Assembly (NCBI GenBank): GCA_036679605.1
Contig: JAZDCZ010000311.1
Location: 1 to 19,913 of the forward strand
Direction: 5' to 3'
DNA from: Gemmatimonadota bacterium
GTDB lineage: Bacteria > Gemmatimonadota > Gemmatimonadetes > Gemmatimonadales > GWC2-71-9
Length of the DNA: 19,913 nt
In this document: positions 1,940 to 13,815 of the stretch, piece by piece
How the letters are laid out: the number at the start of each line of letters is the position of its first letter
Position numbering within the stretch: position 1 is the first letter of the stretch
Program-made: the position numbers and the translations under genes
Notes under the pieces: generated by a model
The model's input: the letters and a program-made list of their open reading frames with translations, nothing else
Databases searched by the model: none
What the model was told of the DNA's origin: nothing

Positions 1940-4291
1940 ATGTCAACGCATGTTCGGTTTGGTAGTTCCAGCTTCGCGCTGGCAGTTCTGGTACTCGTAC
2001 ACTTGGCTGCCCCTGCCGTATCCAGCGGTGAAGCGGAGCCGGTGCCCACCGCGTCGGCCGTCAAGAGCAACCGCGTCAAACCGCTTCCGTGTGCATCCGG
2101 ACGCTACCAGGTAACGGGCGCACCGCTCACGGCGGGCCAAGGGGCTCCCACCGCCGACGTGCTGGAAATCGGGCGGAGTAAGACCGCACTGCCGGGCATC
2201 TGTGGTCCCGTGCCCGCAAAGAGGTTCAAGGCCCGCAGGAGGGGGGGGGGCTTCACGAGGGTCAGGGTGAAGTGGGACATCGGTGCGTGCGCGGGCTTCG
2301 TCGGTAGGGTGAGGCTCACCGGAAAACTCGTGGACGGCTGCACCCGGCTCGAGGGCAGGCTCAAGGCGCGCAAGTTCAGGCAAAAGTTCGAGGCCCAGTC
2401 AGTTCCCCTGGAAACGCCGGTGATCACCAGCATCAGTCCGACGCAGGGCCCCATCGGCACAGAGATCACGATCATCGGCGAGAACTTTGGAGAGGTCCAG
2501 GGCGATAGCGTCGTCACCTTCAACTCCATCGAGGCTGTACCGGCCTTCAGCGGGCTCGGCGATGCTGGTCCGGACAACGGGGAAGCGGTCCTCGGCAAAG
2601 ACATCCTCATGTGGTCTGACACGGAGATCGTTGCCAAGATACCCGCGGGCGCCGTCACCGGCGATCCGGTCTTGAACTCCCCGATGGCGATCGGCGAGGT
2701 GATCGTCTCCCGCGGCACGTGGAAAGAGGTGACCCTGCCTCGCTTCCCCGAATACGGCGGAGATCAGTTGACCGTGACTATGCCGATCCTCAAGGACAGC
2801 AATGGTGTGCGGTTCGACACGATCGGCTCGATTACCTTGCCCAACGGGGAGACGAAAACGGTCGACGAGATGATCGTGATGGGACGCCTGCTTGCGACCA
2901 CGGCGACATTCGGCAATGAGCTCTTGTGGACCCCGAGTGTCCACAGCCGCTGCGACGGAGCCACCGGTGTGTGTGTGGACATCCCGTTCAAGAATTGCAC
3001 AAACGACGCCGATTGCAGGGGCGAAGGCGTGCCCTTTACCCGGGACATCGACCTGAACGACGACGGGCGCATTGACCCCTTTCCCACCGACCTGCCCGGG
3101 GGGTTTCTGGGAAACCCCGAAGCTGCCGGTCTGATGCCGGATCCTTTTGCGCAGACGGACCTGGGGGGGGGATGCCCGGGATGCGGAAGGCTCGACCTCG
3201 CCGGGCCGGGAGCGGTGGAGAATCGGTCGTCTGGCTATGTCGGTCTGCGTGCGATCACCGGTTCGGATGGGGTCGTGCGCTACGGAACCAACTGCGCCTT
3301 CTGCCACGCCGGGCCGGACCCGATCACAGGGATGCCCGTCGGGGGGATGGCCAACCCCAACATCCGGCTCGACTGGTTTACCGCGTTCTCCGAGCAAGTA
3401 ACGGAAGCGGATATCAATGATCCCATTTCGCCGTCGCGTAAGGAGATCGCCCTGCTGTGGGGGCCGGGCAAGATTGATCTCAACTTCCAGCTGGCCGGGA
3501 GCCTCGCGAAGGACCAGTCATTCTCCGTCCCTAACCATACCGGGTCGACGGGTTTCACCCGCTGGTTCTACGTTGGTGACCTGTTTCCGTGGCCACGGGA
3601 AGCCTGGATGGCCAGGCGCCGCGACCGCGAGATCATCGAATTCGTTCGCAACTTCGGTGCGGTCATTGCCTGGGGCGGGACCGTGGCTTGGACGGCGGAG
3701 GCACAACAGAAGCTGGGTGTCATCACCGGCCTGGGGCTCTACATGCATGCGGCCCAGACGAAGGCTAGGCGGCTGACAAACCCCGATATAGACCCGCAGG
3801 TAGCCGACCGGGGAAGACGGGTCTTCGAAGAAGCCGATCTAGGCGGCGGTCTCCGGTGCGCTGACTGCCACTCCCCTCACCTCCAGAGGTACACCAATGG
3901 GATGATCGTTCCGATCAGCGTGGTCGGGACCGATCCCCGCCTCGCCTTCGACAACTATCTAGATGACAACGGTCCATTTGGTGGTGGCCTGGCCACCAGC
4001 GATTTCTCCGGCTTGTTCGCGTATTTTCCGGGCGAGAGCAACCCCGACATTCGCGGATACCGGGTGCCAAAGCTGGTCAACCTGTTCGCCCGGAAGCGCT
4101 TCCTTCACGACGGCGCTCTAGCGACACTGGAGGAACTCTTCGAGACAGATCGACTCGCCCCGAGCTTTGTTGCCACTGGAACGCCGTCCGAAGCGGACGT
4201 TGCCGGCGTGGGTGTTACCGGACATCTGTGGGGCACAAACCTCTCGGCGGAAGACAAACAGGACCTAGTGGAGTTCCTCAAGACCCTGTGA
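1940..4291 (+). CDS. Secreted multidomain di-haem c-type cytochrome (RoxA / cytochrome c peroxidase-like fold) with an IPT/TIG domain
   Basis: Signal peptide; IPT/TIG 'PVITSISPTQGPIGTEITIIGENFG...WSDTEIVAKIP'; haem motifs CAFCH (3293-3307) and CADCH (3857-3871). The C-terminus 'GYRVPKLVNLF...FLHDG...GHLWGTNLSAEDKQDLVEFLKTL' is RoxA-like. GGGGGA RBS. Confidence 0.85.
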   Translation: MSTHVRFGSSSFALAVLVLVHLAAPAVSSGEAEPVPTASAVKSNRVKPLPCASGRYQVTGAPLTAGQGAPTADVLEIGRSKTALPGICGPVPAKRFKARRRGGGFTRVRVKWDIGACAGFVGRVRLTGKLVDGCTRLEGRLKARKFRQKFEAQSVPLETPVITSISPTQGPIGTEITIIGENFGEVQGDSVVTFNSIEAVPAFSGLGDAGPDNGEAVLGKDILMWSDTEIVAKIPAGAVTGDPVLNSPMAIGEVIVSRGTWKEVTLPRFPEYGGDQLTVTMPILKDSNGVRFDTIGSITLPNGETKTVDEMIVMGRLLATTATFGNELLWTPSVHSRCDGATGVCVDIPFKNCTNDADCRGEGVPFTRDIDLNDDGRIDPFPTDLPGGFLGNPEAAGLMPDPFAQTDLGGGCPGCGRLDLAGPGAVENRSSGYVGLRAITGSDGVVRYGTNCAFCHAGPDPITGMPVGGMANPNIRLDWFTAFSEQVTEADINDPISPSRKEIALLWGPGKIDLNFQLAGSLAKDQSFSVPNHTGSTGFTRWFYVGDLFPWPREAWMARRRDREIIEFVRNFGAVIAWGGTVAWTAEAQQKLGVITGLGLYMHAAQTKARRLTNPDIDPQVADRGRRVFEEADLGGGLRCADCHSPHLQRYTNGMIVPISVVGTDPRLAFDNYLDDNGPFGGGLATSDFSGLFAYFPGESNPDIRGYRVPKLVNLFARKRFLHDGALATLEELFETDRLAPSFVATGTPSEADVAGVGVTGHLWGTNLSAEDKQDLVEFLKTL

Positions 4292-4391
4292 GATGGCGGG
4301 GCGCACGCCGCAACCGCCACGGAGTGCAGCTTCGCTCGAGGCGCAAACGGCCGGGCGACTCGATCATTACGGATGCCGGGGGCTTTGTATT

Positions 4392-5540
4392 ATGAAACGT
4401 AGCGCCAACGTCTTTCGCGTGCTTGCAGGAACCGCGGTCGTTCTGGCGTGTACCGTCCTGGCTAAGGAGAGCCACGCGCAATTTACCACAGACGAGCTGA
4501 AGTGCAGGCAAACGATCGCGAAGAGCGGTGCAAAGCTTGCCGGCACCATTGGGAAGGTCCAGTCGCGCTGCCACAAGGACCGGCTCAAAGGCAAGGTGCC
4601 GGTGACGACCGAGTGTAACGATACCGCGCAAGCCGATACCAAAAACAAAATCCAGAGGACCAAGGACAAGCTGCGCGATCGCGTGGCGGGACCGAGCGGC
4701 AAGTGTACCGGGTTCAACCCGGCCTCACTTTCCTACTACAACTGTCCAGCGCCCTGCGACGCGCTGGTCCCCAGTCTTTCCGACTTCACGGACGTGGGCG
4801 AGTGTGTGATTTGCCTCGTCGAAACCGCGGTATCCGAGATGGAATCGATGGCCCAGGGTGCGCCGACGCCTCCCGTGTCCAAGGATGACGGCAAGTGCCA
4901 TAGAACAATCGGCAAGCGCCAAAACAAGCATCTCGCAGTCATTCTCAAGGAACGTACGAAGTGCCAGAAGCGTGAGGAGAAGAACGGGGCTACGACGACG
5001 ACGACGTGCTCGGGGGCGGATCCGAAAGGCAAGATCACCGCGGCCCGTACCAATGGGGAGAACGGAATCGCCACGAGCTGCACCGCGGCCGTACTGGCCG
5101 CGGTCGATTCGTGCAGCGTGGTGTCCATTTCCGAGCTTCAGATGTGTCTTTTCAGCGACTCAGACACGCGTGGCGAGGAAATATTCCAGATGTTCTATAG
5201 CCTTGGGAACGCTAGCTGGACACAGGTGATGGACGTCTTTGCCACCACCGGCTGCAACTCGCCGATTTGTCACGGTGGTATAGGAGCGTTTGGTGGCCTC
5301 GGCGGCCTCGACGACTTCAATGCCGGTCACGCCAACCTGGTCAACGCGCCGGTGCAGTGCCTTGGCAGTAGTTTCGCGTTGCGTGTTGTGCCAGGCGATT
5401 CCGCGAGCAGCTTCCTGATGGCCAAGCTCGACGGCACACACGACTGTGGGGTCCGGATGCCCTTTGCGGGGCCCCCACTATCGAACACCGACCGCAACGC
5501 GATTCGCGATTGGATCGACGCCGGAGCGCCGAAAGACTAG
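4392..5540 (+). CDS. Secreted protein with two Cys/Lys-rich helical repeats and a C-terminal mono-haem cytochrome c-like domain (CX4CH)
   Basis: The likely start ATG 4392 gives a signal peptide (MKRSANVFRVLAGTAVVLACTVLAKESHA). Repeats: 'KCRQTIAK...SRC...D.KNKI' and 'KCHRTIGK...TKC...DPKGKI'. CNSPICH at 5253-5273 is followed by 'VVPGDSASSFLMAKL...RMP...L...I.DWI.AGA'. Confidence 0.8.
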   Translation: MKRSANVFRVLAGTAVVLACTVLAKESHAQFTTDELKCRQTIAKSGAKLAGTIGKVQSRCHKDRLKGKVPVTTECNDTAQADTKNKIQRTKDKLRDRVAGPSGKCTGFNPASLSYYNCPAPCDALVPSLSDFTDVGECVICLVETAVSEMESMAQGAPTPPVSKDDGKCHRTIGKRQNKHLAVILKERTKCQKREEKNGATTTTTCSGADPKGKITAARTNGENGIATSCTAAVLAAVDSCSVVSISELQMCLFSDSDTRGEEIFQMFYSLGNASWTQVMDVFATTGCNSPICHGGIGAFGGLGGLDDFNAGHANLVNAPVQCLGSSFALRVVPGDSASSFLMAKLDGTHDCGVRMPFAGPPLSNTDRNAIRDWIDAGAPKD

Positions 5541-5562: not shown

Positions 5563-5595
5563 GACGCCGTCATAGATAGCCACCTTGGCGGCGTC
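5563..5595 (+). terminator. Stem-loop after the cytochrome pair (possible terminator, no U-tract)
   Basis: GACGCCGTCA (5563-5572) pairs with TGGCGGCGTC (5586-5595), with one G-U pair and a 13-nt loop. Confidence 0.3.
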
Positions 5596-5688
5596 AGCCC
5601 CGAGGCGTTTGAACGCGCCTCATGATGAGGCTTCGGTTTGTCTACGGGATCGGGGGAAGTCCAATAGTTAGCCGATGCTGCGAGGCGG

Positions 5689-5697
5689 TGTTAACGT
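5689..5697 (+). promoter_or_regulatory. Extended -10 promoter, probably giving a leaderless antitoxin mRNA
   Basis: TG-T-TAACGT lies 7 nt before ATG 5705, with no Shine-Dalgarno in between. Confidence 0.45.
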
Positions 5698-5704
5698 AGT
5701 GTCC

Positions 5705-5905
5705 ATGAATCGGGTAGAATCTATTGAGAAAGAGATCCGAGCTCTCTCGCCAGAAGATCTAGCCACGTTACGGGAGTGGTTTCTTGAGTACGACGCCGCG
5801 GTATGGGACCAGCAGCTTGAGCAGGACGCACACACTGGCCGTCTCGAGGGGCTTGCGGAAGAGGCGGTCGAAGCTTACCGGAAACGGAAAACCACTGAGC
5901 TTTGA
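5705..5905 (+). CDS. Putative antitoxin (small acidic protein)
   Basis: MNRVESIEKEIRALSPEDLATLREWFLEYDAAVWDQQLEQDAHTGRLEGLAEEA..., a familiar partner type for ParE-like toxins. Its TGA overlaps the toxin TTG start (TTGA, 5902-5905). Confidence 0.82.
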   Translation: MNRVESIEKEIRALSPEDLATLREWFLEYDAAVWDQQLEQDAHTGRLEGLAEEAVEAYRKRKTTEL

Positions 5906-6156
5906 AGCACGTCGCCTCACCTCGGTTCTGGGCGTGCTACCACGCACTACCGCGTGAGATCCGAACCCTTGCAGACGAGAAATTCACGTTACTGAAGAGT
6001 GCTCCAAAACATCCGTCATTACACTTCAAACGAATCGGATCTCTCTACTCGTGTCGGATCGGCTTGCGATACCGAGCTCTCGGTACTCCGATCAACGACG
6101 GCGTCGTATGGTTTTGGCTAGGAACGCATGCTGAATACGATCGACTCGTCGGCTAA
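5902..6156 (+). CDS. ParE/RelE-superfamily toxin
   Basis: 84-aa basic protein 'FWACYHALP..I...A...F.LLK..P.HPSLHFKRIG.LYS.RIG..YRALG......WFW.GTH.EYD', translationally coupled to the antitoxin. Confidence 0.88.
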   Translation: MKHVASPRFWACYHALPREIRTLADEKFTLLKSAPKHPSLHFKRIGSLYSCRIGLRYRALGTPINDGVVWFWLGTHAEYDRLVG

Positions 6157-6257: not shown

Positions 6258-6825
6258 TTACGGCGCTACCCGCTGCTGCGCTCCCGAGGTGACAAGACGC
6301 GGGCCCATTTGAATTCCGTCAACCGGCATTCCATGCAGATCGTTGGCATCAAGAACCGTGACGCTGAAGTCGCCTTCCTGAAGTTGTTTTGCAGCGGCAA
6401 ATCGACAGCTTACGGCATCGGTAGGCCCATCGAGTCCGGCAATCGAAATAACACCAACGTTAAGCCGCAGTCCGCGCGGCCCAACGGAAAGATTGAAGGC
6501 GACAAGACTTTCCGATCCACCTGCCGGCAGCGCAAAGCAGTCCACTAACGAACTGACCGCAGAATCAAAATCGACCGCGAACTGTAATGTCCCGACAGAC
6601 ACGGTATTTAAAACTCTGAAGAACACGGCCTGTGGCAGGTTAGATCGCACTGCCCGCCAACCGCGCAGTTGAGGTGAGCAACTCACCTGCAACATTACAT
6701 TGATCTACCGTGCAAGCGCTTCCTTCGTCCGCACACGTCGCTCCGGCAAAGCCGGTGCATTGTTGCGATGATTCATCGCAGAGCACATTGCAATCTTCAT
6801 TCAGCCGACACGGATCCCCCGGATC
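6258..6825 (-). pseudogene. 3' remnant of a secreted Cys-rich repeat protein with a C-terminal cohesin-like beta-sandwich; frameshifted and 5'-truncated
   Basis: 'GDPCRLNEDCNVLCDESSQQCTGFAGATCADEGSACTVDQCNVAGE' joins 'CSPQL...GTLQFAVDF...DC...LVAFN...VGVISIAGLDGPTDAVSCRF...GDFSVTVLDAND' if one base near 6680 is removed. No signal peptide or credible start. Confidence 0.65.
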
Positions 6826-7558
6826 CAGATGCACAAGGAATGCCTACTCCAGTCGGGACTGGGTTCTTCGTCTCGCCCGATGGCTGGTTCGCGACTGCTG
6901 CCCATGTCGTAAAGGACAAGGATGGGAACGTCCGTAATGACATTTCCAGTGCCTGGCTCCCGAAGAAGCAGGCCGCGGACCTTGTTGGCGCGATGTGCGA
7001 GGGTGTCTCGTTCGACTACATCAATCCGCAATGGGACATCGTTCTGCTAAGAGTCGACTTTGCGAAAAACAAGGACAGGGAATGGCTCAAGGGTAAGAAT
7101 TTGTTCCCGTTCATCGAGGTCTCTCGTCGACAACTGGAAGAAGGCGAACCTGTGTATTCCTTCGGATACCCGTTGTCGGAGGCACGTACCCAATAGCAGT
7201 CAGGGTTGATCGTTGGCGAAGTGTCCCTCAGTCCGAGGGTAACGTCGGCAATCGTGTCCTCTACGCTCGAGAAAACGAAGATGCTGATGTCGAGCGGCGA
7301 CGAGAAGATCTACGTCCTCGACAAGGCGCTCAACTATGGGAACAGTGGCGGACCCATTGTGGCCGCCGAGACTGGCAGAGTGCACGCGCTATGCTCTCGG
7401 TTTCAGCCGGTGATGGTCCCGAGCCGCACCTGACTGGTTCTGGAGGCAAGCAGATCGCTATCATAACGCCAAGCCTGTACGGGATCGTCCTTGCTCTGCA
7501 CAATCCAAGCATCCTGAAGGCCTTCAGTGAAAGATCAATTCCGACGACAGCAGCATGA
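6819..7558 (+). pseudogene. Trypsin-like (S1) serine protease pseudogene, a former integron cassette gene
   Basis: GTGFF, TAAH, DIVLL, GYP and GNSGGP motifs are all present. In-frame TAG at 7194-7196. A frameshift near 7421 is followed by 'PHLTGSGGKQIAIITPSLYGIVLALHNPSILKAFSERSIPTTAA*', ending at 7558, 4 nt before an attC. Confidence 0.88.
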
Positions 7559-8121: not shown

Positions 8122-10533
8122 TCAGCCGCTCCTATGGAATGTAGCCGTCGAGGTGACAAGCGCATTTTGGGAGCTCCGATCCAAGTAGACGCTGCCGTTC
8201 CTCCATTCGTACTTCGTTGAGAAACGGTTCCCTCGCCAACGCCATTTCTGCGCCTCTCTCATGACGCCTGGGGCTTCAGTAGGTGTGGCTATCCAAACTA
8301 GTTCCCCTACATAGAATCCCATGTCTCGCGACCCGCGCCCCTGTCTGGTCAAAACCCCCTCATATCGGTTCCTATCGACGTTCCAAGTAACCCGCATATG
8401 GTAAAAATTATTCGCGATTTGAGCTTCCCACTCCCCAATCAAGGATAGACCGTAAACCCGTTCTACTTGGTTACGCTGGGTTTCGGTACCTGATGCGGCC
8501 AAGCTTGTGACGGTACGTCGTTCGCTGTGGGTCGCCGGCCGTGAAGACGGCGAAGCTTCCTTGAAAACTATGCCCGAGAGTTTTTTGCGCTTGCCATCGC
8601 GAAGGACCACCAAGGCAACCCCTTTGTTAATCGGAGTTTTGGCGACAATCGACGCCAGTTCCGAAGGCTGACCGACCTCTTTGCCGTCGAAGCGGACTAT
8701 GACATCGCCGATTTTGACCCCGGCCTCGGCGGCCGGGCTGTCGTTAAAGACTCTGGCGACCAGAGCGCCCTTGACCGCAGGTAAGTTAAAGGCTTTTGCA
8801 ACCTTTTCATCGACCGGTTGCATCAAGATACCTAGCCATCCACGCGTAAGGCGACCGTGGTCTTCGAGGTGAGGGACCGTCGAGGTATCAGCCGCCGGGT
8901 CTAGGACTACCGAGTCATTCCAGATATCATACGTCGGGTTTGAAACTACCGTGTCATCCAAGGGCTTCAGTCGAGTTGTTTCAACGGTCTCTTGCGCAGC
9001 CTGCGCAGTAGCTTTCGGTCGCAACGCGCGCGTCGTTTTGCTGTAACTCGGTGACTCTCTCGGTTGCTTTTCGCCTGGGACACCCTCATCGCTTGACGTC
9101 GATTTCGAGCCTAAACTCTTGGTTTCTAGATCATTCGGGGGATTGGCTGTCGGGCTCTCGCGAACTGAATCGAAAAACATATAGCGGTCGATCGCGACCA
9201 TCCCGCCCACTGTGAGAAGCGCGACGATTGTCCCGGCAGCAAGCCACGCGAGCGGTCGCCTTGAGGGCTCGCCGTTGCCCCAAAGCTGCTTTGCCTCTTC
9301 AACGCTGTCAACTCCGGCACAATCAACTCCCCGCTTGGATGCGACTTTGACAAGGCGATCATATTCCGCCGCATCCGAAGTGCCCCGGCGAGGAACATTT
9401 GCCGCGGGGTAGAGAAACATCCCTGCTCGCCGATCGGCTATTACGATCTTAAGTTTTTCAAGTAACCCGCCAATTTTGCCCACTTGGCCCTTACCATCAG
9501 GAAGAATTTCACCCGTAGCATAAATCACATTGGGACGTTTCTCGCCTCGCCCGAATCGAGCAAGCTTGTCTGCTATTGCCAACGCGAGTTGATAGCTGTT
9601 CTCTTCGAAATTGCTGCTGAGCCAAGATACTACGACACCTTTCTTATACGATCGAGCTTTGCGCTCGCCGAACCGCGCTTCGAGGATAGCGTCACTACAC
9701 GCCTTACAATTGACGGCACCAGTCACCGTGATGTCTCGCGATGGGCCGTCGTGCAACTCGCATGTAACAGAGTTTAGACTACCGCCGTTCTCCTCATTGC
9801 CGTGGACTACTGGGAAATAGACGGTAGCACGGCCAGGGCCGCATGCGGTCGCCACCGAGTGTGGCTTGCCAGCAGATGACCCAGCGTTGTCGTTCCCGAA
9901 GCCGGAGCGTTGCTCGTAGGATCCGGTCGTCCTATCGGTGGCTCGTGTCTCCGCTGCTTTACGAGGGTTCTCGCTACACGCTTCGGTTTTTCGCGGGAAG
10001 CGAGCTTCGACTTGATCGCGGGACGAGAAAGCCGCGGCAGCTGAGTTATGTAGTTCGGCTTGGAGCTTCTCACTGTCCTTCCCTGCTGGACCACGTGCTG
10101 CAGCGACCGCAATATTTTCAAGCAACGTCCCTATGGAATCCAGTGCACGGGCCAGATGTCGATCAGTCAGATCGGGAGCACCGCCATCAACGTGGCCAAC
10201 TACGTTTCGGATAGCTTGAACCAGACTTAAACGGCCTATCGTCGCTCGTTCTGGCGGCCCGTCGAATAACCGCTTCCAATCGCGTCGCAAGAGTTTACAA
10301 AGCAACTGCGCGTCCCAGACCACTTGGCCATCGCGCGGGTACATCTCGATATTCTGCTTGAAAAGGTCTTGCCTACCTCGATCTTGCGGCCACGACGCAT
10401 CCCCGATAAACGTTGCCCAACTTTTTCCGTAAACTCGTTCATAGGCGAAAAACAGGAGATTCTTTACCGGGCCCGCAAAGAAATCATTCACCGCGTTCCA
10501 TTGAAATATGTAGTTTGGCCTTGACGTAAACAT
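8122..10533 (-). CDS. Membrane-anchored fusion: Swt1-like HEPN / Lon-type (S16) Ser-Lys protease / TM / DegP-type PDZ / C-terminal beta domain (about 803 aa)
   Basis: HEPN: 'WDAQLLCKLL..DW..LF...IRNVVGH...D...RALDSI..LL' with Rx4H at 10209-10192. Lon-like: 'NSYQLALAIA...YATGEI...G.VGKIGGLLEKL...FLYPAAN' with Ser at 9597-9595 and Lys at 9456-9454. TM at about 9252-9190. PDZ: 'HGRLTRGWLGI...GALVARVFNDSPAAEAGVKIGDVIVRFDG...VLRDGK' at about 8877-8563. ATG 10533 is preferred over 10647 because it avoids overlap with the upstream gene. Confidence 0.88.
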   Translation of the reverse strand: MFTSRPNYIFQWNAVNDFFAGPVKNLLFFAYERVYGKSWATFIGDASWPQDRGRQDLFKQNIEMYPRDGQVVWDAQLLCKLLRRDWKRLFDGPPERATIGRLSLVQAIRNVVGHVDGGAPDLTDRHLARALDSIGTLLENIAVAAARGPAGKDSEKLQAELHNSAAAAFSSRDQVEARFPRKTEACSENPRKAAETRATDRTTGSYEQRSGFGNDNAGSSAGKPHSVATACGPGRATVYFPVVHGNEENGGSLNSVTCELHDGPSRDITVTGAVNCKACSDAILEARFGERKARSYKKGVVVSWLSSNFEENSYQLALAIADKLARFGRGEKRPNVIYATGEILPDGKGQVGKIGGLLEKLKIVIADRRAGMFLYPAANVPRRGTSDAAEYDRLVKVASKRGVDCAGVDSVEEAKQLWGNGEPSRRPLAWLAAGTIVALLTVGGMVAIDRYMFFDSVRESPTANPPNDLETKSLGSKSTSSDEGVPGEKQPRESPSYSKTTRALRPKATAQAAQETVETTRLKPLDDTVVSNPTYDIWNDSVVLDPAADTSTVPHLEDHGRLTRGWLGILMQPVDEKVAKAFNLPAVKGALVARVFNDSPAAEAGVKIGDVIVRFDGKEVGQPSELASIVAKTPINKGVALVVLRDGKRKKLSGIVFKEASPSSRPATHSERRTVTSLAASGTETQRNQVERVYGLSLIGEWEAQIANNFYHMRVTWNVDRNRYEGVLTRQGRGSRDMGFYVGELVWIATPTEAPGVMREAQKWRWRGNRFSTKYEWRNGSVYLDRSSQNALVTSTATFHRSG

Positions 10534-10549
10534 GGCGCCTATGCCTCTC

Positions 10550-11143
10550 TCATTTCTCCTGGCTCGGCTCGAAGGTTCCCATGCCTTCGATATCCAGTCG
10601 GATTCCATGTTCATGAGCCCTGTCCACCGGCGATATTCCCGGGTCATTCCAAATTACCCCTATTTGACAGGTATCGTCGATGGCGCCCTTCAACCATTCC
10701 CGACCGCCCGTATCTACAAGGCGCACTTTAGTTCGGCGTGGGAGCTTTCCTGCTATCTCCCGTTCTATCTTTAGGGAAACTACCCAGCGCGGTGCATCCG
10801 ACTGGGTCCTAAAACACGACACCGAATAACCGTTCCCTTTGATGGTTACGGGACCTTGACCCGCCGCGGCACGCAGCCAAACCACCTCACCGTGCCCCTC
10901 GTCCTGCCAATACCGGCGCGCTTCTTGAATCATTGTGTCTCGCGTCCGCCAGAAGGCCTCGCGTGACGCGCGGCACTCCCAGAGCATCTGCTCTTCCTGA
11001 AAAGAAAAAGGCGGTCCACCCTCGAGCACTTGGCGGATCCGTTCTGCGCTCAGCCTCGCTTCGGATCGCAGGGGCTGACCAGCCAAAGCATCAAATAGAA
11101 TTTCTAGTTCAACGTCTTTCATAGTCCAGTCCTTGAGAGTCAT
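10550..11143 (-). CDS. Putative soluble anti-sigma-like protein / protease substrate (197 aa)
   Basis: ATGA overlap with the upstream gene at 11140-11143. The helical N-half 'LSAERIRQVLEG...EEQMLWECRASREAF' resembles a degenerate anti-sigma domain. LRAAA at 10876-10862 precedes a beta-rich C-half; no TM. The CDS is solid, the function is inferred. Confidence 0.6.
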   Translation of the reverse strand: MTLKDWTMKDVELEILFDALAGQPLRSEARLSAERIRQVLEGGPPFSFQEEQMLWECRASREAFWRTRDTMIQEARRYWQDEGHGEVVWLRAAAGQGPVTIKGNGYSVSCFRTQSDAPRWVVSLKIEREIAGKLPRRTKVRLVDTGGREWLKGAIDDTCQIGVIWNDPGISPVDRAHEHGIRLDIEGMGTFEPSQEK

Positions 11144-12081
11144 CGTGAATTTTTCGAAACAGAGGTGATGACTTTCTCCATCGCTATTGTTTGGCATACA
11201 ATTGCCCGCGCTTGTTCAATCCTTGCACGCAGTTGGGCTCTCGTTACTGCGAACTCCGCCATGTAGTCTTTCTGCCTGTATGGTACGTCCGTGAAGACGC
11301 CTCGCTTAACCGTTGTTGCCAATGCGAGAGCAAGTTCCGGGTGCTCCACATATAGGCGCCTGAGAATGGCTTTTGCGCGTGCAGAAAAATGCGGGCTAGC
11401 GTGGACCAATTCCCCCATATCGTTAAGATTGCGTTCTCGGCAATCGGGACAGAATTCGCGAAAGTAAGACTCCAACGTGACCATTGTCGTGGGCAGATTG
11501 TGTCTCGACGCGTCGTCGATCTGCTTGATACGCTCCAGCACCCTCTCGATATGGTCATCCTCACATGCCTCACCGGGACCAAGCTTGTGCTTATCAGCAA
11601 GTTTGCTGCTGAGTAGTGCGATCTTCATCTCCCACCCCCTTCGTCGGTGGGGTTTCCCAGGGAGCACGCGTAGCCGTTGTTTGTCTAAATAGGATTTCAG
11701 GATCTGACCAAGCGCCTGTCTCGCAGTGAAATCCATATGCCCCGATAGTGCACCCCGTTCACGGTCCGCTGACAGCAGTTCCGTGAGGCGATCGATGTCA
11801 CCAAGAAGCCCAATTGCATCGTCTGCGCCATAGGCGCAAAGGTGTGGCACGATCCCGGATATCCATTTATCTACCTTCTCACGCAGCAATGTCCCATCGC
11901 CTGGATGAGCCGCCGCTTGAATTACAGCCGCAGCGTCGTCGACGCTGAACGATCCAAAAGCTGCAGCGACGACCCTGCTTCTTATGTGTTTCCATTTTGG
12001 ATAGTCCGAAAGTGGATCCATACCCTCTCCCTTCCTCAGGGCCCGGCGCTCCTGGTGAGATCCGGGCCCTTTGAGCAACAC
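11140..12081 (-). CDS. Divergent sigma-factor-like protein with a C-terminal sigma4-like HTH
   Basis: GTG 12081 follows a GGGGGAG RBS (alternative ATG 12021). All-helical character; the C-terminus 'ILRRLYVEHPELALAL...RQKDYMAEFAVTRAQLRARIEQARAIVCQTI' fits the sigma70 region-4 pattern; internal CPDC. The CDS is solid, the function is inferred. Confidence 0.55.
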   Translation of the reverse strand: MLLKGPGSHQERRALRKGEGMDPLSDYPKWKHIRSRVVAAAFGSFSVDDAAAVIQAAAHPGDGTLLREKVDKWISGIVPHLCAYGADDAIGLLGDIDRLTELLSADRERGALSGHMDFTARQALGQILKSYLDKQRLRVLPGKPHRRRGWEMKIALLSSKLADKHKLGPGEACEDDHIERVLERIKQIDDASRHNLPTTMVTLESYFREFCPDCRERNLNDMGELVHASPHFSARAKAILRRLYVEHPELALALATTVKRGVFTDVPYRQKDYMAEFAVTRAQLRARIEQARAIVCQTIAMEKVITSVSKNSR

Positions 12082-12085
12082 CTGA

Positions 12086-12871
12086 TTACTCCCCCTCGAT
12101 GCCTGACTCAATGAATTTCTCAAAATCGCGCGTGTTGCGGCTCGTAGAGTTCCCGAGCGATTCCATATTGTCGAGATTGGCCAAGATGTCTCGGGTGGTA
12201 GTGATAACCGACTGGTTGTCCAGAAGGTTTACATTTCCCGCAGATAGCGTGTTTTGGATCTCCTCTAGCCGTTCGGTGATATCGACGTGGGTGCTTGAGG
12301 CCCTGAGAGACTCGATCTCGGCGGGCAACAGCTCTCGCTGAGACGTAATGTTCGCCTTGGTGATCGCGAGTTCGTCCGCCTTGCGTTTCAGCTTTTCGTA
12401 CAGCTGTGTGGCATGGTGGAGCTGCCGCTCGATGTGAGGACGTTCGTCAAACAGCAGTTTGACCTGAGATTCGAAGATCGAAAAGCGTGGGTAAGTTCGA
12501 CCCGCGAACTCGACCGGACTGTCGGGGCTAGCCTTAGCGTCCGGATGAATCGATCGTGCCTCACTCAAGAGCCGCTTGTTTTTTTCTGCGAGCAGGGAGT
12601 GTTCAGCGACGATGTTGTGGACACGCTCGACTTCACGTCGAAGGCGAGCTCCAGCTACCGCGAGCTTCGCCTCAGCCTCTCGCAGCTCTCGAAATCGCGT
12701 TTCCAGGCACGGGATGGGAAAGCGAGAACACCTGCTGGCTGACCAGCCAAGAAGCTGGTAGCCCAAGGACGCGCTACGCTGGAACATCTCCGGAGCGAAC
12801 GCATGGATACCGGCAAAGGTGACCATGATGGTCAAGAGTGCCACCACTATAGGTCCTACTGATCGTTTCAT
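12086..12871 (-). CDS. N-terminally anchored or exported long coiled-coil protein, PspA/IM30-like
   Basis: AAGGAG RBS 6 nt before ATG 12871. Hydrophobic N-terminus, then 'RFPIPCLETRFRELREAEAKL', which resembles PspA 'EDP..L...+.++'. Two long heptad helices are separated by 'PVEFAGRTYP'. Confidence 0.6.
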   Translation of the reverse strand: MKRSVGPIVVALLTIMVTFAGIHAFAPEMFQRSASLGYQLLGWSASRCSRFPIPCLETRFRELREAEAKLAVAGARLRREVERVHNIVAEHSLLAEKNKRLLSEARSIHPDAKASPDSPVEFAGRTYPRFSIFESQVKLLFDERPHIERQLHHATQLYEKLKRKADELAITKANITSQRELLPAEIESLRASSTHVDITERLEEIQNTLSAGNVNLLDNQSVITTTRDILANLDNMESLGNSTSRNTRDFEKFIESGIEGE

Positions 12872-12938
12872 CATTATCTCCTTCATGGTCGACAGGTTTA
12901 CGTTCGGGCGAATCGACCAGTTGTTTTTGTCTGCCCGT

Positions 12939-13328
12939 CTACTTCCTACCTAGGAGGGAAAAATTTCCTGCAAGCCGCCAAATGAGAAAAAATGTGGTTC
13001 GCAACACACGGGGCACAAACCTGCAAACGGCGCCAAGAAAGTATGTAACTACTGCGCCAAGTACGTGTCCCGCGCCTTCATAGCCTAGCGTCGTGGTGAG
13101 TAAGCCGCGTACGAGCACGAAGAATATTCCCAAAAATAGGAAAACCTTGACCCAGACGGGCAAGGTCTCAAGCCACACGCGGCCGGTGGCCGTCCCGGTA
13201 AAGACGGCCAAAGCCGGTAGTAGGCCGAGCACAAAGGCCATTCGTAGGCGGTGGGCCCAGAGCGCTGTCGCCGTGGCGGCCAGCAAGGCGCAGGTAAGCC
13301 ATATTGGTATCGAGTTCAGTATAGACAT
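12939..13328 (-). CDS. Small integral membrane protein (about 4 TM helices), first gene of the operon
   Basis: GAGGAAGGA RBS before ATG 13328 (the ORF track starts at 13427). The protein is almost entirely hydrophobic with an Arg-rich C-terminus. Confidence 0.75.
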   Translation of the reverse strand: MSILNSIPIWLTCALLAATATALWAHRLRMAFVLGLLPALAVFTGTATGRVWLETLPVWVKVFLFLGIFFVLVRGLLTTTLGYEGAGHVLGAVVTYFLGAVCRFVPRVLRTTFFLIWRLAGNFSLLGRK

Positions 13329-13612: not shown

Positions 13613-13730
13613 AGATCATCGAGCAGGGTGCACAGGCCTTTCGTCGGCTTGGCGGCGCCACGCGCACCGTCGTGCTCGACAATCTGCGCGAGGGCGTGCT
13701 CACCCCCGACCTCCACGACGCCGAGATCAC
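13613..13730 (+). pseudogene. istA: IS21-family IstA transposase internal fragment
   Basis: Manual translation gives RSSSRV, then after a frame change QAFRRLGGATRTVVLDNLREGVLTPDLHDAEI, the region around the second catalytic Asp of IstA. Confidence 0.72.
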
Positions 13731-13736
13731 CTGTAT

Positions 13737-13815
13737 ACCGAAAAGCTCCACGAGTGGGAGAACGACTACAACTACTACCGTCCCCGCGGCGCACTTGATG
13801 GACAAACCCTCGAGC
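13737..13815 (+). pseudogene. IS481/IS3-like transposase C-terminal fragment
   Basis: 'TEKLHEWENDYNYYRPRGALDGQTL' matches the integrase-core end W..xYN..RPH.AL.G.TP. Confidence 0.72.

Follow-up and report, generated by a model that had tools for sequence, protein, structure and literature searches.

A conserved three-gene core, with a Lon protease, a soluble anti-sigma-like protein and a sigma4-bearing protein, in a five-gene block of a Gemmatimonadota contig

What does a run of five tightly packed genes do when one of its products joins a HEPN domain, a Lon-type protease domain, a membrane span and a PDZ domain in a single chain? The block that raises this question lies on the minus strand at positions 8122-13328 of contig JAZDCZ010000311.1, from a 6.7-Mb assembly of a Gemmatimonadota bacterium (GCA_036679605.1); the window analysed here is the entire 19,913-base contig. 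A sequence-only reading had proposed that all five genes form a new system in which an envelope-sensing protease cuts an anti-sigma factor that holds a sigma factor, with a HEPN effector and a PspA-like protein as further parts. What emerged is a three-gene core; a HEPN/PspA system of five genes, in the form first suggested, is not supported. It seems fairly probable to us that gene 3, gene 4 and the part of gene 5 that carries the Lon domain and the transmembrane (TM) helix form a membrane-anchored relative, independent of CRISPR, of the CalpL-CalpT-CalpS relay, which consists of a type III CRISPR SAVED-Lon protease, an anti-sigma factor and a sigma factor that resembles those of the extracytoplasmic function (ECF) group.

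All five open reading frames (ORFs) translate without internal stops, in the co-oriented arrangement first read from the sequence, with gaps of 67, 4, -4 and 16 nucleotides (nt) for the starts used here, and each of the tightly spaced frames is preceded by a ribosome-binding site. Alignments of homologues start at Met21 of gene 3 (ATG 12021) and Met8 of gene 4 (ATG 11122), so that these two genes may begin at those codons, in which case two of the gaps widen.

The three-gene core and its relatives

The conserved unit is a core of three genes, which encode the sigma4-bearing gene 3 protein, the soluble gene 4 protein and a Lon/S16 protease. A full HMMER search with gene 4 returned 78 matches at E<=0.001, namely gene 4 itself, 75 relatives (counted at 50% clustering) and two repeat proteins, P0034 and P0069, which were rejected as relatives. 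Gene 4 is 19-36% identical to its relatives, 69 of which were aligned with it to give alignment A1 (70 rows), six fragments being left out. Six samples of genomes were scanned with the A1 profile, which matched 2 of 401, 10 of 251, 1 of 301, 4 of 151, 1 of 141 and 16 of 121; the seed genome of each sample is part of its count. A pattern derived from six gene 4 sequences yielded 7 loci from genomes and 11 from metagenomes, with Desulfobulbus, Sedimenticola, Desulfobacteraceae, Chromatiaceae and Desulfatiglandales as the named hosts, and 25 wider loci were added; three of the resulting 43 were duplicates, leaving 40 distinct loci. A sigma-profile match lay directly upstream of gene 4 in 36 of the 40, and a Lon gene was found within 7 kb of it in 35. 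All three genes were present in 33 of the 40 distinct loci, or 33 of the 35 in which the contig continues on both sides, and five of the seven loci short of the full core end within 230 nt of gene 4 on the missing side. The sigma profile was built in part from the same loci; as an independent check, gene 3 alone matched 12 of the first 18 loci (E 1e-4 to 5e-10), and a sigma profile from the first locus set matched 9 of the next 10. The expected co-occurrence of all five genes therefore held for this core and failed for genes 1 and 2 and for the gene 5 fusion, since no ORF in the 43 related loci matched the HEPN, PDZ or C-terminal domain of gene 5, gene 1 or gene 2. The claim of CRISPR independence stood: an exact 24-mer repeat scan found no CRISPR array in the window or the 43 loci, and a scan confined to the window and these loci, which took in 19 and 110 ORFs respectively, turned up no cas family.

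Gene 5 (8122-10533, minus strand) encodes a predicted single-pass membrane protease of 803 residues. Its Lon/S16 domain, the part that belongs to the core (9268-9837, minus strand, placed by HHalign), carries the dyad S313/K360 and lacks an AAA+ ATPase domain. A Lon alignment of 39 rows (the window and 38 rows from related loci) matched nine canonical Lon domains at an HHalign probability (P) of 92 (E 7e-7), with S313 and K360 falling on the dyad, and five control pairs gave P <1. Both residues are kept in 34 of the 39 rows, the others being two paralogues with Asp/Tyr and three fragments. Matches of the Lon domain to libraries were weak (PADLOC CRISPR-Lon, E 0.074; NCBIfam SepM S16, E 0.004), and a PDB profile search with the Lon alignment gave nothing significant. 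A hydropathy scan placed one TM helix at residues 430-448 (9190-9246, minus strand), followed by a DegP/DegQ-type PDZ domain at residues 553-656 (8566-8877, minus strand), which is predicted to lie outside the cytoplasm and is the candidate sensor. Pfam PDZ_2 matched residues 567-652 (E 4.5e-13) and a DegP-like PDB sequence matched at E 3e-24; HtrA models matched gene 5 only at residues 552-682. At the other end of the protein, residues 27-143 (10105-10455, minus strand) form a Swt1-like HEPN domain with the motif R109-x4-H114. Pfam HEPN_Swt1 matched it below the cut-off (E 9e-4), and HHalign against eight Swt1 domains from genomes gave P 88.6 and E 2.6e-6, the motif aligning on that of the family (RNVVGH with RNRWAH); a DUF499 protein encoded on Thermus plasmids also matched it weakly (E 0.05). 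By these alignments we judge the HEPN and PDZ domains to be real. A Swt1 hidden Markov model (HMM) from the eight sequences matched no locus ORF; this HMM also missed gene 5 and is too weak to show that HEPN is absent from the relatives. The HEPN, Lon and PDZ domains and the single TM helix are as first proposed, and a further C-terminal domain of about 108 residues (about 696-803; 8125-8448, minus strand), which had not been listed, was recognised by its composition, which is that of a folded domain; it had no match in Pfam, NCBIfam, PHROGs or plasmid searches. No Pfam match to a SAVED domain was found in gene 5 at E<=1, and the Lon domain is followed directly by the TM helix and PDZ.

Gene 4 (10550-11143, minus strand) encodes an anti-sigma-like protein of 197 residues, the candidate substrate, with no Pfam family and, by the hydropathy scan, no TM helix. 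Its AlphaFold (AF2) model has a predicted local distance difference test score (pLDDT) of 91 and a predicted template modelling score (pTM) of 0.80, and shows helices at residues 8-81, a loop and a beta-sandwich at 99-185. The loop holds the sequence LRAAA, confirmed at residues 90-94, in which Ala92-Ala93-Ala94 (10862-10870, minus strand) are the predicted scissile site and latent C-terminal Ala-Ala (AA) degron, as judged by conservation and by register with CalpT10. Ala93 is kept in 69 of the 70 rows of A1, and 68 of the 70 have AA in the linker, versus 73 of 890 equal windows elsewhere (8%). AA is missing from two matches only, those of loci L074 and L075, and no others have room for a sigma-like or Lon neighbour and lack both; they are near-copies and so count as one event. 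These two genes (L074:6447-7046 and L075:1610-2203) are orphan gene 4 homologues that lie behind a gene of the DNA polymerase III alpha type. A PDB profile search with the gene 4 alignment gave nothing significant. In the ESM Atlas, gene 4 fell among 30 unnamed clusters, and the nearest named cluster (0.82) has zf-HC2 in 15% of its members, which we take as a lead only.

Gene 3 (11140-12081, minus strand) encodes a sigma70-like protein of 313 residues (293 from ATG 12021), 13-23% identical to its relatives, with a sigma4-like helix-turn-helix (HTH) at 11176-11385 (minus strand) that was recognised by HHalign. The family alignment matched region 4 of primary/alternative sigma factors at P 83 (E 1e-5) and a second alignment at P 74 (E 1e-5 to 3e-5 across both), with controls at P <1; the match to ECF sigma factors was weaker (P 19, E 1e-3). 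The sigma reference alignments are shallow, with effective sequence numbers (Neff) of 3.7 and 5.6. None of Pfam, NCBIfam, PADLOC and PHROGs names gene 3. Its feature matches in the ESM Atlas score 0.95-0.96, and several of the matched clusters are named or annotated as sigma-70; 22 of the 30 matches have no common Pfam family, and the others carry HTH or Sigma70 r2, r3 or r4 families, among them clusters with Sigma70_r2 in 96% and 75% of their members and one with r3/r4. A single-sequence AlphaFold model of gene 3 (pLDDT 39) was not used. As far as profiles can tell, gene 3 carries sigma4 and there is no profile evidence of sigma2. The sigma fold that had been read into this protein thus stands for region 4 only, with no profile match to sigma2 or sigma3, and gene 3 may stand for a group of sigma factors that has diverged too far for the present Pfam models.

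The relatives fall into four subtypes, and in subtypes A-C the Lon domain is followed by a TM helix. Subtype A (17 loci in a tree grouping, one of them under a protein id) has the order Lon, TM and a disordered tail, and its Lon gene adjoins genes for secreted proteins of the CsgG/FlgO type, of the DUF6844 type and of an unnamed 380-residue type. When all locus ORFs of more than 200 residues were scanned for the C-terminal pattern [LIVM][EQ]S-x5-7-[YF], 22 rows including duplicates were found, consisting of 11 Lon proteins and 11 DUF6844-type proteins and no others; three of the latter are named as such by Pfam and the rest by similarity or position. The loci that share the motif are L008 (2733-3689 and 5533-6942), L010, L011, L014, L015, L020 and L040. 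The tail of the subtype A protease thus mimics how a secreted protein encoded in the same locus ends, and this suggests that the two may compete for a partner that binds peptides and that sensing works in this way; the PDZ domain at the same position in the window fits this peptide-sensing theme. Subtype B (five loci) has a small beta domain after the TM helix and lies beside RCC1-repeat or DUF4384 genes and two-partner secretion genes, and subtype C (two loci) has the TM helix at its very end. Subtype D (14 loci, one family) has an extra N-terminal Lon-like domain (HHalign P 97.8), and SPFH, kinase-FGE and transpeptidase-fusion genes accompany it in 11-12 of 13 loci. The outer modules thus differ between a disordered tail whose end motif is conserved, a small beta domain, a TM helix only and, in the window, PDZ; judged from these sequences, the outer module is interchangeable across the family. 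The annotated neighbours of the relatives include CsgG/FlgO, DUF6844, FlgT_N, LPP20, TPR, peptidoglycan-binding, DUF4384, RCC1-repeat, SPFH and transpeptidase proteins.

Some loci show further arrangements. In L008, L015, L016 and L020 genes 3 and 4 lie about 6 kb from the genes of the secreted trio and of Lon and are transcribed divergently from them. A second Lon-like gene directly precedes the active one in L015 (3198-3812) and L008 (3696-4319); it lacks both dyad residues and a TM helix and is a pseudo-protease. Inactive Lon copies, whether separate as in L008 and L015 or fused as in subtype D, fit a protease that works as a pair. The family of G595, in which the gene 4 profile matched 16 of 121 genomes, has a conserved operon (L038 and L064-L078) with a transpeptidase-fusion gene, a 385-residue HTH protein, the gene 4 homologue, an unknown protein, a tandem Lon, an SPFH/zinc-ribbon protein and a SHOCT-kinase-FGE protein.

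A predicted relay across the membrane

The relay reading of the core draws on the linkage of the genes, the intact dyad, the single TM helix, the two domains of gene 4 with their conserved Ala-Ala linker, and sigma4 in gene 3. With VIA-align, residues 93-187 of the gene 4 model were superimposed on residues 195-270 of CalpT10 (8b0u_C) over 74 of 76 residues (root-mean-square deviation, rmsd, 3.6), so that residue 93 pairs with the residue at which CalpT10 starts. The cut in CalpT falls after Ala194 (bioRxiv 2021.12.06.471393), and with this register the near-invariant alanines of gene 4 sit at the matching place; in a second CalpT system, bioRxiv 2024.05.08.593097 reports, the cut exposes LQLAA, which was shown to act as a degron. 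The likeness to CalpL-CalpT-CalpS, and the protease, anti-sigma and sigma logic drawn from it at the outset, therefore appear sound: the core co-occurs, the dyad is kept and AA is near-invariant at the place of the CalpT cut.

In the relay that we propose, gene 5 would sit N-in, C-out, an orientation assumed because the candidate substrate, gene 4, is soluble. The helical domain of gene 4 would hold gene 3 and its beta-sandwich would dock on Lon. C-terminal peptides of unassembled or damaged envelope proteins would bind PDZ and cluster gene 5, and one Lon domain would then cut the gene 4 protein held by a neighbouring gene 5, as CalpL does. A cut after Ala92 or Ala93 would leave LRA(A)-COOH, a ClpXP-type degron, and the freed gene 3 protein would redirect RNA polymerase to envelope genes. 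Two accounts of CalpL-CalpT-CalpS (PMC11417357, bioRxiv 2024.05.08.593097) are the source for docking of the beta-sandwich on Lon, cutting in trans activated by clustering, the degron, removal by ClpXP and release of the sigma factor, and binding of C-terminal peptides by PDZ is modelled on DegS (PMC10028731 and general background). As a guess, the HEPN domain may be a ribonuclease (RNase) that becomes active through this clustering as well. HEPN domains generally build their active site by dimerising, and one clustering event could thus, speculatively, start both arms.

Several results weigh against this relay, or against parts of it. The charge bias around the TM helix of gene 5 is slight (3 vs 2), and the topology rests on analogy. 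Membrane anchoring is not universal, since 13 of the 14 Lon rows of subtype D have no TM helix; the upstream protein of this subtype aligns with gene 3 at P 2, and the link between them rests on one member added by position. In the fold comparison CalpT10 was rank 12 of 48,161 with a VIA-align Z of 4.8, tied with TRAF and Cu/Zn superoxide dismutase (SOD) sandwiches, so that homology is not proven. Foldseek with the gene 4 model returned nothing at E<=0.001, CalpT10 (8b0u_C) being at rank 40 with a probability of 0.89 and E 0.044; these fold searches bore on the beta-sandwich, and the helical N-terminal domain was barely tested by them. Sensing by PDZ is argued by analogy and rests on this one locus, and binding of gene 3 by gene 4 and cleavage of gene 4 by gene 5 are predicted only. 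As for gene 3, its first 205 residues gave E 0.25-0.27 against the sigma alignments with no match to sigma2 or sigma3, Pfam gave no sigma match for gene 3 or any homologue scanned, and a PDB profile search with the gene 3 alignment found no sigma factor and nothing significant.

The last of these results bear on an alternative in which the relay is real and gene 3 is not a working sigma factor, being instead a sigma4-type DNA-binding regulator or an RNA polymerase-binding effector checked by gene 4. Only sigma4 is detectable in gene 3, whose N-terminal two thirds match no sigma region, and the large share of its Atlas matches without a common Pfam family points the same way. However, gene 3 has about 300 residues and ends in its sigma4, an arrangement also seen in alternative sigma factors, its Atlas matches include the Sigma70_r2 clusters and the r3/r4 cluster, and the references that failed to match are shallow. 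We regard this alternative as rather unlikely, and keep to a relay that ends in a sigma factor.

A broader claim is put forward more tentatively than the relay itself. The family may possibly be an undescribed class of single-pass receptor proteases with swappable outer sensors, whose inner Lon domain cuts a CalpT-like anti-sigma factor and frees a divergent sigma factor, and which monitor the assembly of envelope complexes through shared C-terminal peptides; CalpL-CalpT-CalpS would then be an offshoot recruited by CRISPR, and the copy in the window would have added a clustering-activated HEPN RNase. If true, this would be a route by which the envelope reaches transcription without a kinase and without proteolysis inside the membrane, and it would suggest an origin for the CRISPR relay. 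The modular design, with a sensor outside and a protease inside, could serve as a synthetic receptor in bacteria, and the predicted cut site, degron, dyad and sensor are directly open to mutation.

Added domains, accessory genes and setting of the block

The two upstream genes look like accessory, local additions, and HEPN, PDZ and genes 1 and 2 together look like additions of this lineage. Gene 1 (12939-13328, minus strand) encodes a small membrane protein of 129 residues with three predicted TM helices and had no match in Pfam, NCBIfam, PADLOC or PHROGs. Gene 2 (12086-12871, minus strand) encodes 261 residues, with a TM helix at residues 8-26 and a long coiled coil, and gave weak generic coiled-coil matches only (Pfam, NCBIfam and PDB sequences); it was found in none of 140 other genomes of the host phylum. 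Its assignment to PspA/IM30, part of the initial proposal, was rejected, as no PspA match was found in Pfam, NCBIfam or PDB sequences and the protein begins with a TM helix. In a quick tree, gene 4 groups (Shimodaira-Hasegawa-like approximate likelihood ratio test, SH-aLRT, 87) with ten proteins that are known as proteins only, without locus DNA, so that the additions may be common within this nearest clade.

It had also been suggested that the block serves defence: PDZ would sense phage entry, the sigma factor would induce the operon, the HEPN RNase would cause dormancy or abortive infection, and genes 1 and 2 would be membrane partners. The intact Rx4H motif would suit such a role, as would the position of the block in a low-GC patch between insertion sequence (IS) remnants and beside a toxin-antitoxin pair; release of CalpS arrests growth in E. 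coli (bioRxiv 2024.05.08.593097), and the nearest gene 4 clade is known from its proteins only. The neighbourhoods of the relatives nevertheless lend it no support. They hold mostly envelope proteins among their annotated genes, the only defence-like ones that Pfam found among the 110 locus ORFs being a RES toxin pair in L011 and an SNF2 helicase in L041, and none of the 43 loci has a match to HEPN, PDZ, gene 1 or gene 2. No PADLOC model passed E 0.001 in a scan of the window proteins. An anti-phage or abortive system is therefore improbable in our view, and the envelope relay remains the preferred reading.

The block has a GC content of 55.1% compared with 58.5% for the contig, and a third-position GC content (GC3) of 0.55-0.65 compared with 0.67-0.77 in four flanking genes. 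The low-GC patch is edged on the left by an IS3-family remnant at 5578-5663 (plus strand; blastn against plasmid records, best annotated as an IS3 family transposase, E 7e-17) and on the right by an IS481-like transposase remnant near 13668-13795 (plus strand; blastn E 3e-6 to 4e-4, Pfam rve_3 E 0.04), so that IS scraps, which had been noticed at the outset, flank the block on both sides. Integron debris was not confirmed, as a strict search of both block flanks found no attC site and an Rfam scan gave no match. Such surroundings raise the alternative of a decayed or rearranged mobile remnant, a horizontally acquired core set beside unrelated HEPN, PDZ and genes 1 and 2 that have no joint role. 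It would account for a single occurrence (among 300 other genomes of the host class none was found to have the Lon domain), for neighbours that are IS scraps and a broken trypsin-like gene, and for the divergence of genes 3 and 4 from their relatives (13-23% and 19-36% identity). Against it stand the five open frames with their tight spacing and ribosome-binding sites, the retention of S313, K360, the AA motif and Rx4H, and the PDZ domain in the place of the relatives' variable outer module, and we think a remnant highly improbable.

To the left of the block lies a probable toxin-antitoxin module of two small genes (5675-6156), the second of which is ParE-like (E 5.7e-6). The trypsin-like peptidase gene at 6768-7433 is broken by one in-frame stop at 7194-7196, and a fragment at 6258-6695 (minus strand) is matched by three paralogous sequences in other parts of the genome (E 8e-9 to 1e-5) and has no Pfam family. 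The region 1940-5540 encodes a secreted-looking IPT/TIG and cytochrome c protein of 783 residues and a Cys-rich protein of 415 residues, and for the latter several paralogous sequences turned up, both in the genome and in relatives. The assembly has a contamination of 6.3%, and the lone genome of the same genus measures 3.7 Mb, so the host assignment of the contig may be unsafe. One public contig covers 5000-14500 without any difference; it is probably from the source sample and is not independent support. No RNA dataset was listed as holding the block, and scans of viral contigs gave no match. Plasmid searches gave no match for the Lon domain, three gene 4 homologues, the Lon of a relative, gene 2, the C-terminal domain of gene 5 or the left flank. 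Word-index protein searches returned only gene 4 itself for gene 4, nothing for residues 1-460 of gene 5 and seven matches for the gene 4 profile.

Comparison with known systems

In the paper listings searched, supplements apart, no description of such a module was found; a paper on BREX (PMC12839542) was not relevant. Two of the resemblances concern single proteins. Swt1-like HEPN domains (PF18731) share with gene 5 the N-terminal position and the aligned R-x4-H, whereas the match is below the Pfam cut-off and gene 5 fuses the domain to a membrane Lon protease, a fusion found elsewhere in none of our searches. PspA/IM30 resembles gene 2 in its length and long coiled coil and differs from it in that gene 2 has no family or PDB match to it and starts with a hydrophobic TM helix.

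DegS-RseA-RseP-ClpXP-sigmaE shares with gene 5 a PDZ domain, which in gene 5 is predicted to lie outside the cytoplasm as in DegS and is likely a sensor of C-terminal peptides, and shares with the core a proteolysed anti-sigma factor that ends in an AA degron, as predicted for gene 4. However, DegS has a periplasmic trypsin fold, while the protease of gene 5 is of the S16 class and lies on the N-terminal side of the TM helix; RseA spans the membrane and gene 4 has no TM helix. The window encodes no site-2 intramembrane protease, and the signal would have to cross the membrane through the protease itself. The core is not DegS-RseA, as its protease is of another class and on the other side and its anti-sigma-like protein is soluble. 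Csx29-Csx30-CASP-sigma of type III-E CRISPR (PMC10028731) has a protease that cuts a soluble anti-sigma factor encoded beside a sigma factor, as is proposed for the core; Csx29 is a CHAT protease that is triggered by an RNA-guided complex and has no membrane span, and no homology to it was seen, though none was looked for.

The closest counterpart is CalpL-CalpT-CalpS. Like the core, it has an ATPase-free Lon domain with a Ser-Lys dyad, an adjoining two-domain soluble partner with alanine in the linker and a small C-terminal beta-sandwich, an adjoining sigma-like gene and an AA degron, which for gene 4 is predicted. CalpL carries a SAVED domain for cyclic tetra-adenylate (cA4), whereas gene 5 has a TM helix and an outer domain instead, and CalpL-CalpT-CalpS is encoded at a type III CRISPR locus, whereas no CRISPR array is near the core genes. 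The N-terminal part of CalpT is a 23-kDa MazF-like fold and that of gene 4 is helical, of about 80 residues (81 in the confident model); the C-terminal domain of CalpT is Ig-like (DUF2080, CalpT10), and the beta-sandwich of gene 4 aligns with it weakly (Z 4.8). CalpS is ECF-like, while gene 3 has a sigma4 closer to primary/alternative (E 1e-5) than to ECF (E 1e-3) sigma factors. The core works, in the relay predicted here, like CalpL-CalpT-CalpS and yet is not a member of it: the SAVED domain, the CRISPR linkage and the MazF-like domain are missing.

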